From Bacteroidota bacterium (GTDB taxonomy: Bacteria > Bacteroidota > Bacteroidia > Bacteroidales > ML635J-15): 34,005 nt of DNA. How positions within the stretch are numbered: position 1 is the first letter of the stretch; each line of letters starts with the position of its first letter. The translations under genes were made by a program, and so were the position numbers. The notes under the pieces were generated by a model. The model ran no database searches, had not been told where the DNA came from, and worked only from the letters and a program-made list of their open reading frames with translations. This document shows, piece after piece, positions 25,261 to 31,223 of the stretch. The stretch is from assembly GCA_051748025.1 (NCBI GenBank), contig JBNJGX010000004.1:1-34005 (forward strand), in the 5' to 3' direction.

Positions 25261-25690
25261 CCGGAAAGGGTTTCAACAAGAAACGAAGCCGCAAGGCTTC
25301 GGAGATGAGATACTCACCGTTTGAAGCCAGGTGAAAAGCCAACCTCACAGAGATGTGACAAGGCGGCTCGCTCCGGTAAAAGCAGCAAAATGATTAAGTT
25401 CACAAGCAGCTTAAGCCGGCACCCGAAGTGCAGAGGCAAGCAACAGGTAAAACTGTTGAGAGCCAAAGCGAAACGGAAGGGCTAACGCCCGGAAGGCTTC
25501 GGGAGGACAAAAACCGGACAAAAAGGTGGCAACACCCACAACATCGGTTCAGGTTCAGTAATTTGATAAGCTCAACGCTTATTCAAAAAACTGAGCAGGC
25601 AAAATAACTGTAACCTGGTTGACATTGCAAAGCTACGGCAATGCAATGTTAAAAGGGGAATATCGTACAGATGTTCCCCTTTACTGTTTT
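25261..25690 (+). ncRNA. candidate structured non-coding RNA, class unknown (5' boundary uncertain)
   Basis: No ORF of 60 aa or more in this stretch apart from the tail of the rejected 25127-25348 minus ORF, with stops frequent in the + frames I read. Clearly higher GC than the flanks, and purine-rich on +. It has many compact hairpins, three of them with GNRA loops: CGAAGCC-GCAA-GGCTTCG 25284-25301, TCACA-GAGA-TGTGA 25345-25358 and GGTG-GCAA-CACC 25525-25536. Other hairpins are 25419-25431, 25435-25464, 25479-25490, 25550-25617 and 25622-25649. It ends in a terminator-like hairpin. Confidence 0.45.
25652..25690 (+). terminator. terminator-like hairpin closing the candidate RNA
   Basis: AAAGGGGAA (25652-25660) pairs with TTCCCCTTT (25674-25682), a 9-bp stem with a 13-nt loop, followed by ACTGTTTTAT. 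Confidence 0.5.
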
Positions 25691-25804: not shown

Positions 25805-26692
25805 TTAAAAAACATCCATGCTCAGGTATTTTTCTCCCCGGTCAGGTAAAACAACAAGTAATTTCCCTTCATTGATGTTTTCAGAAGCTTTTTTGGCAGC
25901 GGCCATTGCTGCACCTGAACTTAACCCGGCAAAAATGCCTTCTTTGCAAGCCAGCCGCCTGCACCATTCAACCGCTTCTTCCCGGCTGACAGTTATTTCT
26001 TCACTAAGCAATGCCACATCATAAACACCTGGCATAAAATCCAGTTTGGGATTTTGAATACCCTGAATAACATAAGATGCCGGCGGTAATGCTGCTACCA
26101 TTTTTGTTTTCAATCCTGCTTCACTGAAACGTATGGCAGTGCCCATCAGCGTACCTGATGTGCCTGTACCGGCAACCACAGCATCAACGTGTGGAACCTC
26201 ATTGACAAGCTCACAGCCTAAGCCGTAATAATGTGCCCTTAAATTATCAGGGTTATTAAACTGATTTGTAAACCAGTATTTATCAGGATTTTCCTTTTTC
26301 AGGCTCCGTGCTTTTTCTATGGCACCTTCTGTTCCCAATGCCGGATCGGTAAGTACCAGTTCTGCGCCAAGCGCTTTCATCATTCTGCGTCTTTCCATGC
26401 TCATGCTTTCAGACATCACTATCTGTACAGGATAAGATTTTATGGCACCTATCATGGCAAGCGAAATACCCATATTGCCGCTGCTGGCTTCAAGAATGGT
26501 TTTACCCTGATGCAGGTCGCCACGTTTTTCTGCTTGTTCTGTCATGAATAAGGCCGGCCTGTCTTTTACCGACCCCCCTGGATTCAGCCCTTCATATTTG
26601 GCATAAACCTGTATGCCTTTTTTAAAACCTGTGTTTTTCAATGCCGTCACAGGTGTGTTACCAATATTATCCAAAATGCTTTTTGCTTTCAT
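25805..26692 (-). CDS. cysK: PLP-dependent cysteine synthase (CysK/CysM family)
   Basis: 295 aa. Contains NPGGSVKDRPA (the PLP lysine motif), SSGNMGISLA and GTGTSGTLMG. K versus M subtype cannot be decided by eye. Confidence 0.9.
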   Translation of the reverse strand: MKAKSILDNIGNTPVTALKNTGFKKGIQVYAKYEGLNPGGSVKDRPALFMTEQAEKRGDLHQGKTILEASSGNMGISLAMIGAIKSYPVQIVMSESMSMERRRMMKALGAELVLTDPALGTEGAIEKARSLKKENPDKYWFTNQFNNPDNLRAHYYGLGCELVNEVPHVDAVVAGTGTSGTLMGTAIRFSEAGLKTKMVAALPPASYVIQGIQNPKLDFMPGVYDVALLSEEITVSREEAVEWCRRLACKEGIFAGLSSGAAMAAAKKASENINEGKLLVVLPDRGEKYLSMDVF

Positions 26693-26744
26693 CTGTTTAT
26701 TGTTTTATTTTTAGCTCAAACCCCTCGCAGATTTGAGGTTTTAC

Positions 26745-26777
26745 AAAAAAAAATCCCGGCAATCCTACCGGGAATTT
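26745..26777 (-). terminator. strong intrinsic terminator between the Cys-rich small ORF and cysteine synthase (attenuator candidate)
   Basis: RNA sense: AAAUUCCCGG-UAGGAUUG-CCGGGAUUUUUUUUU. The GC stem is CCCGG/CCGGG, extended by A-U pairs, and is followed by a U9 tract (26745-26753). It lies 52 nt upstream of the cysK ATG. Confidence 0.75.
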
Positions 26778-26809
26778 GAAACCTTACATTACTGTATCAT
26801 AACCTCATA

Positions 26810-26926
26810 TTAATAACAACAGCATGCAGCCCCCGGCAATGCACCGTGGCCACAACAACATTTTATCTGTGTTTTATTTACCAGCCTGTTGCCTGTGTAT
26901 TTTGCAAGTCGCTCCAATAATTCCAT
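26810..26926 (-). CDS. 38-aa cysteine-rich small ORF: candidate Cys leader peptide (alternatively a RiPP-like precursor)
   Basis: Hand-found: MELLERLAKYTGNRLVNKTQIKCCCGHGALPGAACCCY. It has two CCC triplets (TGT TGT TGT and TGC TGT TGT). ATG at 26926, TAA at 26810-26812. A -7 box lies 24 nt upstream and a terminator 33 nt downstream. Confidence 0.55.
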   Translation of the reverse strand: MELLERLAKYTGNRLVNKTQIKCCCGHGALPGAACCCY

Positions 26927-26950
26927 TTTCCAAATTGTTTTGATTTTTTA

Positions 26951-26958
26951 CAAACATA
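26951..26958 (-). promoter_or_regulatory. -7 box TATGTTTG (TAnnTTTG) for the Cys-rich ORF / cysK leader
   Basis: The + strand CAAACATA is TATGTTTG on the minus strand, 24 nt upstream of the small-ORF ATG. Confidence 0.4.
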
Positions 26959-27120
26959 CAAAATATTCAATTCCATTTGAAATATTTCCTGTTTTATTGA
27001 TTTTTTCAATTTCATTTGAATATTTTGGCTTTCTGATGCAATGCATCCTGGAAAAATAACAAAATATGTAGCCGTGTTTACATACCATTTTCAGATAAAA
27101 CAACCCCGCCATAAAGCATC

Positions 27121-27891
27121 CTAACCAATTATTTTTCTTCCCACAAAAATGGTTTCTTTTTCGGGAAGTCTGTAGCGCTCTTTCTCATCTTCAGTAAAAT
27201 CATCAACAAAATGGTTTTCCTCCACTACAAAACCAACGGATCGCAACCTGTCGGCATAATCCAGACCGTGCCAGCGCACATGGTCGTATTGGCCAAAAAC
27301 CTGCTCCCGTTTTTTGGGATCGGTGATGCTCAGGTCTTCAATGGTTTCTTTGTTATTGTAATTGATTGGCACCTGCATTATTGCCCATCCACCGGGTTTC
27401 AGCACACGTAAAATTTCTTTCATGGCTTTGATGTCACTTTCCACATGCTCCAGTACGTGGTTACATATGATGGCATCAAATTGGTCGCCTTCAAACGGCA
27501 TATCCATGATGTCCATTTTCACATCCGCAATGGGGCTGAATAGATCACCGGTAATGTAATCCAGGTTTTCAAGCTTCTTAAAACGTTTCAAAAAAGGCTG
27601 TTCTGGTGCAACATGCAACAATTTCAAATTTCCGGTAAACAAATCGGTTTCTGATTTAAAAAACAGCCACATCAGACGATGGCGTTCTAGCGACAAGCAT
27701 TTTGGGCACAAACGGTTATCATCTCCCTTATTCCCGTATGGCAGCATTTTGCGGAACTTCCCGCCACATACAGGGCATTCGTAATTATTGCCACGGTAAA
27801 AGGGAATTATCAAAAAACGAAATACATACGAAAACCTTATCAGCAAAGGCCGGGGGATTTTTCTTACCAAAAATCTCATAAATTTCCGCAT
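27121..27891 (-). CDS. class I SAM-dependent methyltransferase with an N-terminal Cys4 zinc-ribbon-like motif
   Basis: 256 aa. Contains CPVCGG...CPKC, then Methyltransf_11-like motifs (LLHVAPE, DAIICNHVLEHV, LKPGGWAIMQVP). Confidence 0.82.
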   Translation of the reverse strand: MRKFMRFLVRKIPRPLLIRFSYVFRFLIIPFYRGNNYECPVCGGKFRKMLPYGNKGDDNRLCPKCLSLERHRLMWLFFKSETDLFTGNLKLLHVAPEQPFLKRFKKLENLDYITGDLFSPIADVKMDIMDMPFEGDQFDAIICNHVLEHVESDIKAMKEILRVLKPGGWAIMQVPINYNNKETIEDLSITDPKKREQVFGQYDHVRWHGLDYADRLRSVGFVVEENHFVDDFTEDEKERYRLPEKETIFVGRKIIG

Positions 27892-27960: not shown

Positions 27961-28617
27961 TTACGCTTCAACTTCAGTTGGACCTGACCCTTGTTTTTGT
28001 AATTCTTTATCAGTTTTGAAGGTAAAATATGCAATAATGTGCAGAATCCAACCAATTAACATACATATCCCTCCTATAAGTGTGATGAATAATAAGAATG
28101 GGGATGCAGAGCTGGATGATAAAATCATCATAACAATACCCAAAATAATTAATGTTATAATTGGAGTTATAAAATACAGTAACCCGGCAGTTTTAAAAGT
28201 TTTTATGCCACTTTTTTCAGCAAGTAATTTCATTGCTTTAAATAGCAGATAAAACCCAATAATATAAGCGGCAAACATGATAATTTGAGCAATAATGAAA
28301 CCTGTACTTCCCTTTATGAACATATTGATAAAATCATCAATTTTTTGCAAATATGGCCGTGATAGTGCTGAACTTGCTATTGTAACAGCAAAGATTATTG
28401 TACTGATTATGCCTCCTGCAAGGGGGATAATAAAACCAACTAAGGCATTTTTAAAAATACCCGGGGTTTCATAATAACTGGAAAAATTGTGAAAAGAAAT
28501 CAATAAAAAGATCAATGTCCCTAATGCAGCAATCCCCATTAAATAAGGATAAGGAATAATAAAAGCTATTGGTAATAAAATTCCAATACGACCTAAATTT
28601 ATAGCTTGTTTCTTCAT
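27961..28617 (-). CDS. multi-pass membrane protein, unknown function
   Basis: 218 aa. About six hydrophobic helices and a short polar C-tail (TDKELQKQGSGPTEVEA). No family confidently recognised. Confidence 0.68.
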   Translation of the reverse strand: MKKQAINLGRIGILLPIAFIIPYPYLMGIAALGTLIFLLISFHNFSSYYETPGIFKNALVGFIIPLAGGIISTIIFAVTIASSALSRPYLQKIDDFINMFIKGSTGFIIAQIIMFAAYIIGFYLLFKAMKLLAEKSGIKTFKTAGLLYFITPIITLIILGIVMMILSSSSASPFLLFITLIGGICMLIGWILHIIAYFTFKTDKELQKQGSGPTEVEA

Positions 28618-28872: not shown

Positions 28873-29036
28873 TGTTTATATTTCGGTTTGACACGAAATT
28901 TATTTAGGTTAGAAACAATGCATGTCGTGTTAACCAACCCTTGTAAATGAGCATTTTAACAAATGATGAATATACCCTGGATACGGGTTGAATTTTGATA
29001 AAATATAAAAACAGGAGGAAAAATACCGTTTGGATT

Positions 29037-31223
29037 ATGGAACAAATCAACAGATTAAACAAAATTGCGCTGAATATGCGGGCCCATAAGTTGTTGACCC
29101 GATTACTGGATGAAAATCCCCGGTTAACGGAAATATTACGTGAATCAAAAGATGTTGAAGAAGCTTCAAAACGCTTGCAGGACATGGCTTTATCTACTTT
29201 GGAGAAATCAGAAACAGCCATGGCTTATTATAAACATAAAATAAAAGGCCGTAAATATTTTAATCAGCTCAGATGGGATGATTATGCTGCTATCCGTTTA
29301 CTGGATTATATTGACAATGCCGGAAAAATATGTAAAGACGCTAACCTTCGCGGTGAAAACGTTTTAACAGACCCTGTACGTATGTTGTATCTGGCTTATC
29401 ACAAAGGCGTTGGTGGAGCCAAGCCTGATTTTTTTACAGATATGATATATTTATTCAGGCAATTGAGTGGCAAAACATCCCGGCTTGAGTATGCGGATGA
29501 AAAAATCAAAGAATGGATGAACCGTTGGCCTGACGGGCTTCAACAAGAAATCATTGAATTACGGAAAAAAAATAAAGACCGTATCATTAAAACCTTTATA
29601 AAACACATTGATGCCGGGGAAATCCAGGATAAAAAATACAAATTCGGGAAGGAAATGTCATTTGAGAAAAAATACAATAAAATGCTGGAATGGTGGGATG
29701 AATCAGTATTTCACCTGCGTTTTGCTGTACGCAGCCCTGAATTTTTAAATGAGATGCTTGACCATTCGCTCGATAGCGAAACCCTCGACTTACTCGAACG
29801 TGCCAAAAAATCCGGTATCCCATTTTTTGTTAACCCTTATTATTTATCACTTGTTAATGTCCATGCCCCTGAATTTGCCTTTGGTGCAGACCTTGCAATC
29901 AGGGAATATATTTTATATTCTGAAGAACTTGTAAGCGAATTTGGCCATATTGTAGCATGGGAGAAAGAAGACCTTGTAGAAGTTGGCAAGCCCAATGCAG
30001 CCGGATGGATTTTGCCTTCAAAATATTCTGTTCACCGCAGGTACCCTGAAGTAGCAATCCTTATTCCGGAAACCATTGGCAGGGCTTGTGGCGGTCTTTG
30101 TTCAAGCTGCCAGCGTATGTATGATTTCCAACGTGGTAACCTGAATTTTGACCTTGATAAACTGAGGCCCGATGAAACATGGCATGAGAGGCTTGAACGT
30201 TATATGGAATACTGGGAAAATGATACACAGCTCAGAGATATCCTGATCACAGGAGGTGATGCCCTGATGAGTACTGATAAATCCCTTGAACGAATTCTTG
30301 ATGCTGTGTATCAAATGGCTAAACGCAAACGTGAAGCCAATAAAAACAGAAAGCCCGGAGAAAAATATGCAGAATTGTTAAGGATCCGACTCGGTACTCG
30401 GCTTCCGATATATCTGCCACAACGGATCACTGATAATCTGGCAAAAATCCTTAAAGATTTTAAAGAAAAAGCTTCTGAAATCGGCATTAAGCAATTTGTC
30501 ATACAAACCCATGTGGAATCACCCATGGAAGTTACACCAGAATCCAAAGCTTGTTTTGAAAAACTTATTGGTGCCGGCTGGATAGTCACCAATCAACTGG
30601 TATTCACAAAATCAGCATCCAGGCGTGGGCATACAGCAAAACTAAGAAAAGTACTGAATGATGTCGGTGTGTTGCCGTATTATACCTTTACAGTAAAAGG
30701 TTATATGGAAAACGCTTCACAGTTTGCCACTAACGCCAGGGCTGTACAGGAACAAATTGAAGAGAAACGACTCGGTGCAATTCCGGAAAAATATGATAAC
30801 CTGATTAAAGAATTTCCACTCAATGCTGAAAATATGATCGAGCAAATTGAGGGTTTGAGAAAAAAAGAAAATATCCCGTTTCTCGCAACAGACAGAAATG
30901 TTCTCAATCTGCCGGGCGTGGGCAAAAGTTTGACCTACAGGACAATCGGAATTACACGGTATGGACGGCGTGTGCTCGAATTTGATCATGATGCCACGCG
31001 GAATCACAGCCCCATTATCAATAAAATGGGTAAAGTAACCATCATTGAATCAAAATCAATACAAAAATACCTGGAACAAATGGCAGATATGGGTGAAGAC
31101 ATTGAAGAATACAACAACATATTTGGTTATTCAATCGGTGAAACCGAACACCGTATTCCCATTTATGATTATCCGGAATATGATTTTGATATCACCAGCG
31201 AGATAAGTAACCTGGAAGCTTAG
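29037..31223 (+). CDS. KamA (lysine 2,3-aminomutase) family radical SAM protein with a long N-terminal extension
   Basis: CX3CX2C cluster (RACGGLCSSCQRMYDF) followed by ILITGGDALM, as in KamA-family enzymes. About 320 residues precede the cluster. I prefer the ATG at 29037 (MEQINRLNK) over the track's TTG at 28995. Confidence 0.82.
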   Translation: MEQINRLNKIALNMRAHKLLTRLLDENPRLTEILRESKDVEEASKRLQDMALSTLEKSETAMAYYKHKIKGRKYFNQLRWDDYAAIRLLDYIDNAGKICKDANLRGENVLTDPVRMLYLAYHKGVGGAKPDFFTDMIYLFRQLSGKTSRLEYADEKIKEWMNRWPDGLQQEIIELRKKNKDRIIKTFIKHIDAGEIQDKKYKFGKEMSFEKKYNKMLEWWDESVFHLRFAVRSPEFLNEMLDHSLDSETLDLLERAKKSGIPFFVNPYYLSLVNVHAPEFAFGADLAIREYILYSEELVSEFGHIVAWEKEDLVEVGKPNAAGWILPSKYSVHRRYPEVAILIPETIGRACGGLCSSCQRMYDFQRGNLNFDLDKLRPDETWHERLERYMEYWENDTQLRDILITGGDALMSTDKSLERILDAVYQMAKRKREANKNRKPGEKYAELLRIRLGTRLPIYLPQRITDNLAKILKDFKEKASEIGIKQFVIQTHVESPMEVTPESKACFEKLIGAGWIVTNQLVFTKSASRRGHTAKLRKVLNDVGVLPYYTFTVKGYMENASQFATNARAVQEQIEEKRLGAIPEKYDNLIKEFPLNAENMIEQIEGLRKKENIPFLATDRNVLNLPGVGKSLTYRTIGITRYGRRVLEFDHDATRNHSPIINKMGKVTIIESKSIQKYLEQMADMGEDIEEYNNIFGYSIGETEHRIPIYDYPEYDFDITSEISNLEA

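Follow-up and report, generated by a model that had tools for sequence, protein, structure and literature searches.

We analysed a stretch of 34,005 nucleotides (nt) from a Bacteroidota bacterium (GenBank assembly GCA_051748025.1, contig JBNJGX010000004.1, positions 1 to 34,005; hereafter the window), focusing on a short leader that lies on the minus strand directly upstream of a cysteine synthase family gene. An earlier reading of this DNA from its letters and open reading frames (ORFs) alone, hereafter the sequence-only reading, had taken the leader for a candidate cysteine-sensing attenuator. Reading the sequence over 26500–27200 together with the ORF list, we found all the minus-strand features behind that idea in their places, i.e. 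a −7 promoter box, an ORF of 38 amino acids (aa) with two CCC triplets, a hairpin with a U9 tract and a gap of 52 nt to the cysK/cysM ATG.

The candidate Bacteroidota-type −7 promoter box (TATGTTTG, 26958–26951, minus strand, as are all leader coordinates below) was read from the sequence and lies 24 nt upstream of the leader AUG. The −7 consensus of Bacteroides promoters is TAnnTTTG; a sigma-70 promoter scan gave nothing specific near 26951–26958. The leader ORF (26926–26810, from the ORF list) consists of 38 codons and a stop, and its predicted peptide, MELLERLAKYTGNRLVNKTQIKCCCGHGALPGAACCCY, contains six Cys residues in two CCC runs. The first run is encoded by UGU UGU UGU (codons 23–25, 26860–26852), whose residues are near-invariant among the 13 leaders described below and which we propose as the stalling site. 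The second is encoded by UGC UGU UGU (codons 35–37, 26824–26816). Region 1 (GUGGCCACGGU, 26853–26843) begins within the last Cys codon of the first run and is the 5′ half of the 1:2 anti-antiterminator hairpin, as indicated by RNAfold, by covariation and by the same register in other leaders. Region 2 (26839–26826), defined by its fixed spacing and by pairing counts, is both the antiterminator strand and the 3′ half of the 1:2 hairpin: the part UUGCCGGGG (26839–26831) pairs with region 3 and the part GCCG..GGCUGC (26837–26826) pairs with region 1.

Region 3 (UCCCGGUAG, 26773–26765), identified by a terminator scan, folds and pair counts, comprises the 5′ arm of the terminator plus the first loop base, and can pair with either region 2 or region 4. 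Region 4 (UGCCGGGA, 26761–26754) is the 3′ arm, found by the terminator scan and belonging to a helix that covaries. The terminator hairpin, UCCCGGUA-GGAU-UGCCGGGA (26773–26754), has eight pairs, five of them G-C, and is followed by the U9 tract (26753–26745), seen both in the sequence and in the terminator scan. The element is thus laid out in the order Cys run, region 1, region 2, spacer, region 3, region 4 and U tract, which is the full classical 1:2 / 2:3 / 3:4 scheme. The sequence-only reading had recognized regions 2, 3 and 4 but had missed region 1 and the 1:2 hairpin (26853–26826). It had also pointed to a 9-mer, AUUGCCGGG, that does occur twice, at 26840–26832 (ORF codons 29–32) and at 26763–26755 (terminator 3′ arm); a 9-mer repeated within ~270 nt is by itself not improbable. 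The opposite strand of the leader region contains no large ORF, and a scan of the window against Rfam, even at E up to 10, gave no family match.

The gene downstream (26692–25805, minus strand) has its ATG at 26692, 52 nt past the U tract, and encodes a CysK/CysM-like, pyridoxal phosphate-dependent protein of 295 aa that is assigned to the cysteine synthase family by NCBIfam and by its homologues (hereafter cysK). Its NCBIfam scores (cysKM 316 bits with a cut-off of 344, cysM 291 and cysK 282) are all below the curated cut-offs; its homologues contain PF00291 and have cysteine synthase as their source name.

Conservation of the leader in related loci

A CysK scan of species-representative genomes yielded two close relatives with 75% and 73% identity, labelled as Bacteroidota and Bacteroidales metagenome-assembled genomes (MAGs), and both have a short Cys-run ORF and a terminator directly 5′ of cysK. 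A protein search with CysK revealed a very small close clade followed by a large group at 50–57% identity. Contigs were retrieved for eleven of the protein-search homologues, which together with the window and the scan relatives gave 13 distinct leaders. A short Cys-run ORF, a hairpin and a U tract lie immediately 5′ of cysK in all 13 distinct loci, whose CysK identities to the window range from 53% to 99%. The peptide of the window leader is ...IKCCCGHGALPGAACCCY, and those of the other loci are MMRYLVNHNICCCSKGCYPGAVCYCC (L002), MNHINCCCSSVLLPGTA (L001), MMFFPNHTSCCCSSLFLPGTA (L021), MRFVLNHINCCCNSVLLPGTA (L022), MKQTNIYNHINNCRCGLGFVPRSACLCL (L023), MEYINTYKQINNCCCGLGIVPRSACLCL (L028), MKLANTYNQTNNCCCGLGFVPRSACLCL (L032), MKPLNTYNQANNCCCNLGMIPRLYCLCSCR (L030), MIKRYNHIICCCGPETITGSFILLCVLQTD (L031), (GTG)KNSVTYSFSAGCCCGDRMSPGTVPSYI (L024, with a GTG start), (GTG)QIFYYILKNCCCDTEIYSGIAYLCCNH (L025, likewise with a GTG start) and MKKVIIYVNCCCNPDKYPGYVY (L037).

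The source labels of these loci include Bacteroidota/Bacteroidales, Peregrinibacteria and Krumholzibacteriota. For example, the CysK source names are Bacteroidales for L024 and L025, Candidatus Peregrinibacteria for L030 and Candidatus Krumholzibacteriota for L037 (MAG labels, taken unchecked). The leader element extends beyond Bacteroidota. A metagenome scan with a CysK alignment gave only homologues of ≤48% identity, which served as negative controls: neither inspection by eye nor the covariance model described below found the leader in any of these 14 loci (L003–L016). The sequence-only reading had proposed searching orthologous cysK leaders for a Cys-rich upstream ORF (uORF) and for the alternative helices; both are kept in 13/13 related loci and in 0/14 distant ones.

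The gene 5′ of the leader varies among loci (e.g. an outer-membrane protein beta-barrel, Rho, an aminotransferase, ApbA, or an RND component on the other strand), and cysK is the sole constant neighbour. Since the upstream genes differ or point the other way, the terminator is not that of an upstream gene. In L001, L002 and L017–L022, a gene for a 207-aa outer-membrane beta-barrel protein (PF13505) on the same strand ends ~0–25 nt before the leader AUG, so that either this gene would contain the promoter or it would be co-transcribed with the leader and cysK. A different gene lies upstream of the leader in the window, at a distance of ~194 nt.

We then built a covariance model from the 12 non-window leaders, i.e. 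in a leave-one-out design. On the window it gave a single match at 26866–26741 (minus strand) with 75.5 bits and E ~3e-13; the next score was 14.9 bits. A degenerate DNA pattern of the leader was also run on viral contigs and hit six stretches, which we regard as chance since they have no start codon, U tract or covariance-model match.

The region upstream of the leader AUG was inspected as well. Five leaders from contigs not labelled as Bacteroidota (L023, L028, L030, L031 and L032) have no Shine–Dalgarno sequence before the AUG and contain a −10-like box (TATAAT, TATGGT, TACTAT or TACCAT) 5–9 nt before it (e.g. at ~1440–1460 in L023 and ~290–310 in L028). Judging from this arrangement, their leader ORFs may be on leaderless messenger RNAs (mRNAs). 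The L037 leader, unlike these, has a clear AGGAG.

Alternative helices and the leader peptide

The 33 nt after the Cys run align without gaps across the leaders. In every leader region 2 begins in the same register, 12–15 nt past the run, and the distance from the run to its core (CCGGG, CCGAG, UCGGG or ACGGG) is exactly 15 nt in 13/13, which makes precise the distance of about 15 nt from the first CCC triplet that the sequence-only reading had given. For pairing counts we used a gapless alignment (A3) of 90 columns and 13 leaders, which MAFFT also left gapless. Each row was spliced from the Cys run, with 6 nt before and 33 nt after it, followed by positions −9 to +3 of the region 3 core and −3 to +17 of region 4. 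Region 2 was placed by its distance from the Cys run alone; regions 3 and 4 were placed by a hairpin pattern, which biases the terminator counts but leaves the placing of region 2 unaffected.

In this alignment, 88% of the cells of the antiterminator (2:3; nine pairs, columns 28–36 with 57–65) are paired compared to ≤55% in slid controls. Its covariation score is 0.444 compared to ≤0.184 for slid controls, with double changes at five of the nine pairs and no score as high among 500 shuffles. For the 1:2 hairpin plus the terminator, 74.6% of the cells are paired (≤54% in slid controls) and the covariation score is 0.329 (≤0.177 in slid controls), with double changes at 17 pairs and again 0/500 shuffles as high. 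A core pair changes from G-C to A-U in L023, L028, L030 and L032. The three inner 2:3 pairs use bases of the terminator loop that are not copied in region 4, and appear as G-C, A-U, U-A, U-G or G-U among the leaders. The window 2:3 helix (UUGCCGGGG with UCCCGGUAG) forms 9/9 pairs, i.e. six Watson–Crick and three G-U; the antiterminator is thus longer than the seven pairs given in the sequence-only reading. An antiterminator extended to positions +2 to +4 of region 2 paired no better than chance there and was trimmed to the nine pairs.

Folding of the leaders gave a consistent picture of two states. Unmasked leaders fold into the 1:2 hairpin and the terminator. The 1:2 hairpin is formed by GUGGCC.CGGU / GCCG..GGCUGC in the window (26853–26826, −14.9 kcal/mol by RNAfold), by GCGAUACCGAA / UUCGGGUAUCGC in L025 and by GCGGUCUUGGAA / UUCCGAGAUCCGC in L028. 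To represent a stalled ribosome, leaders were masked through 10 nt past the Cys run, and region 4 was omitted as untranscribed. The region 2 core then pairs with the region 3 core in the minimum-energy fold of 13/13 leaders, with all five core pairs formed in 11 leaders and four of the five in the other two. Masking region 1 thus switches the leader from the terminator fold to the antiterminator fold. The window energies are −21.7 kcal/mol for the 2:3 state, with a nested spacer hairpin included, and −13.8 kcal/mol for the 3:4 terminator. Comparison of these two energies and of the covariation of the competing helices had been suggested with the sequence-only reading, and both come out in favour of the attenuator. 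The terminator hairpin is G+C-rich and directly followed by a U run in 13/13 leaders, with energies of −11 to −26 kcal/mol.

We also compared the constraints on the RNA with those on the encoded peptide. In an alignment of the 13 leader peptides, conservation is confined to the Cys run, which is CCC in 12 leaders and CRC in one. Start codon, Cys run and stop are in frame in 13/13. Between 5 and 22 residues precede the Cys run, and the C-termini are unrelated. The residues encoded over region 2 vary (i.e. PG, PR, SG and TG), and the bases change with the terminator arm of the leader concerned: L028, L030 and L032 pair CCGAG with CUCGG, and L025 pairs UAUUCGGG with CCCGGAUA. The Pro codons over region 2 are CCG in 11/11 cases, in sequences of 33–47% G+C. 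Searches of Pfam and NCBIfam gave no match for ten leader peptides at E up to 10. Together, the bases that track the RNA, the freely varying peptide and the lack of a family match argue against a functional peptide. In most leaders, the 4–8 codons before the Cys run are A-rich, with many Asn, His and Gln codons (e.g. N-x-Y-N-Q/H-x-N-N, AAUCAUAUAAAUAAC). This stretch may reflect a need for unstructured RNA, a nascent-peptide effect or mere common descent.

Proposed attenuation and its alternatives

Our results suggest that the cysK/cysM-like gene, as an operon of its own, is controlled by a ribosome-mediated leader-peptide transcription attenuator with charged tRNA-Cys as its signal, a reading to which we give a probability of about 0.85 from the sequence comparisons. 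The attenuator proposed by the sequence-only reading is supported by its presence in 13/13 loci, the constant 15-nt spacing, the three covarying helices, the masked folds and the free variation of the peptide.

According to the proposed mechanism, transcription would start upstream of the 38-codon leader ORF. As long as no ribosome is stalled, region 1 would pair with region 2 and region 3 with region 4, and RNA polymerase would terminate at the U9 tract. If Cys-tRNA is scarce, the ribosome translating the leader would stall on UGU UGU UGU (26860–26852). Its footprint, reaching ~10–13 nt downstream, would cover region 1 and leave region 2, which lies just beyond, free to pair with region 3 as soon as the latter is transcribed. 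The terminator would then be blocked and cysK transcribed. The stall geometry uses the general size of the ribosome footprint. If cysteine is plentiful, the 1:2 hairpin would re-form behind the ribosome, followed by the 3:4 terminator.

On this last step we differ from the sequence-only reading, in which termination would be favoured because a ribosome that has reached the stop codon hides region 2. The window stop lies 18 nt beyond region 2, so a ribosome there would hardly cover it, and re-formation of the 1:2 hairpin is the likelier cause of termination. The stop is near enough for a ribosome to cover region 2 in L001, L021, L022 and L037.

The second Cys cluster did not fit the simplest model in the sequence-only reading, and it still does not: it is not required in the family. 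It is translated in 8/13 leaders, 2–4 codons past the region 2 core, is absent from L024 and L037, is reduced to one Cys in L031 and is preceded by a TGA stop in L001, L021 and L022, and is thus dispensable in the family. In the last three leaders (at 2915–2929 in L001), TGA replaces the first codon of the cluster (TGA TGT TGT TGA, TGA TGT TAT TGA and TGA TGA TGT TGA, respectively), and the remnants of the cluster are recognizable past the TGA. Selenocysteine at this TGA was set aside, a stop codon being simpler. A role at the RNA level, as a strand of the spacer hairpin nested in the antiterminator, was also rejected since the spacers are no stabler than shuffled ones (z −2.0 to +0.9). The cluster may be either a vestige or a second checkpoint that makes the threshold sharper. 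A bolder and rather doubtful version is that leader and cysK together make up a self-contained cassette, independent of any trans-acting regulator, that has moved between distant phyla (i.e. Bacteroidota, the candidate-phyla-radiation group Peregrinibacteria, and Krumholzibacteriota), with the second cluster as a functional checkpoint. If so, a ribosome leaking past the first run would stall on the second cluster, sit on region 2 and enforce termination, and the two checkpoints would turn the gene on only under severe shortage of Cys-tRNA. To our knowledge, no such two-checkpoint design has been described for amino-acid attenuators.

Several observations weigh against attenuation as proposed here. 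The terminators of L024, L031 and L037 reach −24 to −26 kcal/mol compared to about −17 kcal/mol for their 2:3 states, so read-through in these leaders would depend wholly on folding order. Since the CCGGG/CCCGG cores are nearly invariant, a large part of the pairing carries no information. The changes that are informative stem from 13 related sequences; that from G-C to A-U in the core occurs in one subclade and may be a single event. The 90-column alignment was spliced by us, and its regions 3 and 4 were found with a pattern that seeks hairpins. The antiterminator core contains a central mismatch in L022, and L002 and L031 form only 6/9 pairs. Where regions 2 and 4 differ, pairing of region 2 with region 3 is 0.47, close to the cross-sequence null of 0.43; at the three inner positions of these differences, the pairing with region 3 is better (15/22). 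Furthermore, a ribosome halted at the second Cys cluster would sit over region 2 and so promote termination, for which the simple model offers no explanation.

The surroundings of the leader and cysK bear on the extent of the transcript and on what else might be encoded. At 25652–25682, ~120 nt past the cysK stop, a 13-bp palindromic terminator-like hairpin (AAAGGGGAA...TTCCCCTTT) could serve both strands, which suggests a monocistronic cysK transcript. An additional 9-bp hairpin without a U run (CCUCAAAUC...GGGGUUUGAG) lies at ~26737–26715 (minus strand), past the U9 tract and before the cysK start; it is present in the window only, which also has the widest gap from terminator to ATG. Directly upstream of the leader and on the same strand are genes for a class I methyltransferase with an N-terminal CxxC...CxxC zinc-ribbon (27121–27891, minus strand) and, adjoining it, a 218-aa multi-pass membrane protein with no family match (27961–28617, minus strand), neither of which is kept beside the leader elsewhere. 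Further on, the plus strand encodes a 742-aa protein with a KamA-family radical SAM core (28995–31223; CGGLCSSC), which scores 157 bits with TIGR00238, below the cut-off of 199, and has long N- and C-terminal extensions compared to aminomutases of ~330–420 aa. The two strands of the window contain 10 runs of three TGY triplets, with ~1.7 expected from mononucleotide shuffles, an excess that is probably a composition effect. The other eight Cys-triplet runs in the window are scattered over unrelated frames and positions, and none of them belongs to a short ORF followed by a terminator.

Four other explanations were weighed against a ribosome-mediated transcription attenuator. The stall could act on translation, as in the polycysteine small ORFs (sORFs) of mycobacteria, by opening the cysK start, with a hairpin and U tract that barely terminate. 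This mode has been demonstrated experimentally for Cys-run sORFs of Mycobacterium smegmatis (bioRxiv 10.1101/834739; PMC13236596); the possibly leaderless ORFs with a −10-like box 5–9 nt before the AUG, and the extra hairpin between the U tract and the cysK start of the window, would also suit it. Yet the intrinsic-terminator signature (i.e. a G+C-rich hairpin and a U run) is found in 13/13 leaders, the alternative helix competes with the 5′ arm of the terminator and not with the cysK start region, the latter is A-rich, lies 25–117 nt further on and has no conserved structure, and the extra hairpin is peculiar to the window; translational control thus seems very unlikely. Slightly less credible still is a functional Cys-rich small peptide, e.g. 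the precursor of a ribosomally made peptide with post-translational modifications (RiPP), a metal- or thiol-binding peptide or one that binds CysK, with the hairpin as no more than its terminator. Six Cys residues in two clusters, a second cluster that is superfluous for attenuation and nevertheless kept in 8/13 leaders, and a KamA-family radical SAM protein and a methyltransferase within 3 kb are what such a peptide might be expected to show. We considered these two neighbours as RiPP maturases and dropped them since the neighbourhood is not conserved: they accompany the leader in no related locus, where cysK alone does. Moreover, the peptides vary in length and C-terminus, in three leaders a TGA stop precedes the second cluster, the residues encoded at region 2 track RNA pairing, and neither SCIFF nor any other Cys-rich peptide family in NCBIfam or Pfam was matched. 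The leader therefore does not behave as a Cys-rich RiPP precursor, with neither a peptide family match among the ten leaders searched nor a conserved maturase-like neighbour.

The helices might instead belong to a structured RNA with a metabolite or protein as its ligand (i.e. a riboswitch-like or protein-dependent attenuator), with the ORF incidental to it. It is true that conserved and covarying helices alone do not prove the ribosome to be the sensor. However, start codon, Cys run and stop remain in frame in 13/13 leaders despite the divergence of the peptide, and the Cys run is always directly 5′ of region 1, the place for a stalled ribosome to act; there are two simple hairpins with no conserved loops or junctions for a ligand pocket, and no Rfam family matches the window. 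A ligand-binding RNA is therefore about as improbable as a functional peptide. Least probable of all is chance, i.e. a fortuitous short ORF beside the ordinary terminator of an upstream gene, with no regulation. A short ORF is as unremarkable as the repeated 9-mer, and the window is rich in TGY runs, but the element is kept across loci whose upstream genes differ or are opposite, the leave-one-out model finds it with the E-value given above, and all three helices covary. Nor are the related loci assembly copies, as their CysK proteins have diverged, with 53–75% identity to that of the window, and their leaders differ throughout.

Comparison with known systems

Bacterial cysteine control is usually credited to CysB, CymR, T-boxes or, in mycobacteria, to translational sORFs. 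A terminator-based Cys leader before cysK would close a gap among these modes and would add cysteine synthase to the short list of genes under leader-peptide transcription attenuation, in groups (i.e. Bacteroidota, Peregrinibacteria and Krumholzibacteriota) for which cis-regulatory RNA and the coupling of transcription and translation have been little studied. The leader also supports the annotation of the below-threshold CysK/CysM-like clade as a cysteine-supplying enzyme. As a compact, putatively cysteine-responsive switch of ~125 nt that would need no regulator, it is potentially usable in Bacteroides genetics, and the covariance model could map its distribution over genome collections.

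The element most resembles the proteobacterial amino-acid leaders (i.e. trp, his, pheA, thr, leu and ilv; Rfam Trp_leader RF00513). Like these, it has tandem codons for the end product in a short ORF, mutually exclusive 1:2, 2:3 and 3:4 helices, a terminator before the biosynthetic gene and a default fold that is terminated. Two runs of the regulatory codon are also known from the pheA leader. By contrast, here the codons are for Cys, the gene is cysK and the hosts are Bacteroidota, Peregrinibacteria and Krumholzibacteriota; moreover, the ORF of classical leaders stops before or in region 2, whereas here it crosses region 2 and stops 9–36 nt past its core. An Rfam search of the 12 related loci gave one sub-threshold match to Trp_leader, at 2831–2937 of L021 (36.1 bits, gathering score 41), in which UGG UGG was placed on UGU UGU and both hairpins fit; on the window Trp_leader gave none at E up to 10. 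With the same architecture, no UGG codons and a score below the gathering threshold, the leader element is not a member of Trp_leader. Automated annotation could, on the example of L021, mislabel Cys leaders as trp leaders.

A closer parallel in its signal is the uORFC-8-2 motif before cysS in Rhodobacterales, a predicted ribosome-mediated Cys-codon attenuator (Brewer et al. 2021, PMC8632094). The two share tandem Cys codons in a uORF, two stems, a terminal U run and charged tRNA-Cys as the proposed signal. The motif differs in its gene, which codes for a tRNA synthetase, and in its restriction to one alphaproteobacterial order, as compared to cysK and other taxa here. Its Cys codons number two and are part of the first stem (about codons 14–15); those of the present leaders number three and lie just 5′ of the first stem. 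We set the window element apart from uORFC-8-2 by this description; nothing in Rfam 15 matched. For precedents of control by a Cys-rich uORF, the sequence-only reading had named mycobacteria, which is correct, but a terminator-type Cys attenuator has thus also been described for cysS.

The mycobacterial polycysteine leaderless sORFs (the 'Cys ribulon'; Canestrari et al. 2020, 10.1101/834739) act on translation, and their response to cysteine was demonstrated experimentally; the translational action is restated in PMC13236596. Actinobacterial cys leader peptides without terminators have also been described (Seliverstov et al. 2005, PMC1262725). Shared with these sORFs are the runs of Cys codons upstream of cysteine metabolism genes and, on our reading, ribosome stalling as the sensor. 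The mycobacterial sORFs, however, unmask a downstream ribosome-binding site and have no conserved terminators, whereas every member here has a terminator and an antiterminator. The window leader, with terminators in 13/13 leaders, an alternative helix that competes with the terminator and ~24 nt from the −7 box to the AUG, is thus not an attenuator of the mycobacterial sORF type.

Cys-specific T-boxes of Firmicutes also read the charging of tRNA-Cys and choose between terminator and antiterminator upstream of cysteine metabolism genes (e.g. PMC2566862). Their sensor is a direct RNA–tRNA contact with no translated ORF, and no Rfam T-box match was found here. Papers on the transcriptomes of Flavobacterium psychrophilum and Bacteroides thetaiotaomicron touch on leader-peptide attenuation in general terms only. 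Rfam found no Bacteroid-trp match in the window or in the 12 related loci. The Bacteroid-trp leader motif of Rfam, reportedly from work of Weinberg and colleagues in 2010, is a predicted leader-peptide attenuator in Bacteroidota and shows that the phylum makes use of such control. It shares the phylum and the mode of control, with Trp codons and trp genes as compared to Cys here. In a literature search of incomplete coverage, we found no description of a Cys leader before cysK for Bacteroidota or for candidate-phyla-radiation bacteria. In brief, the Cys leader before cysK is very probably a new conserved example of a classic control device, and not a new kind of device.

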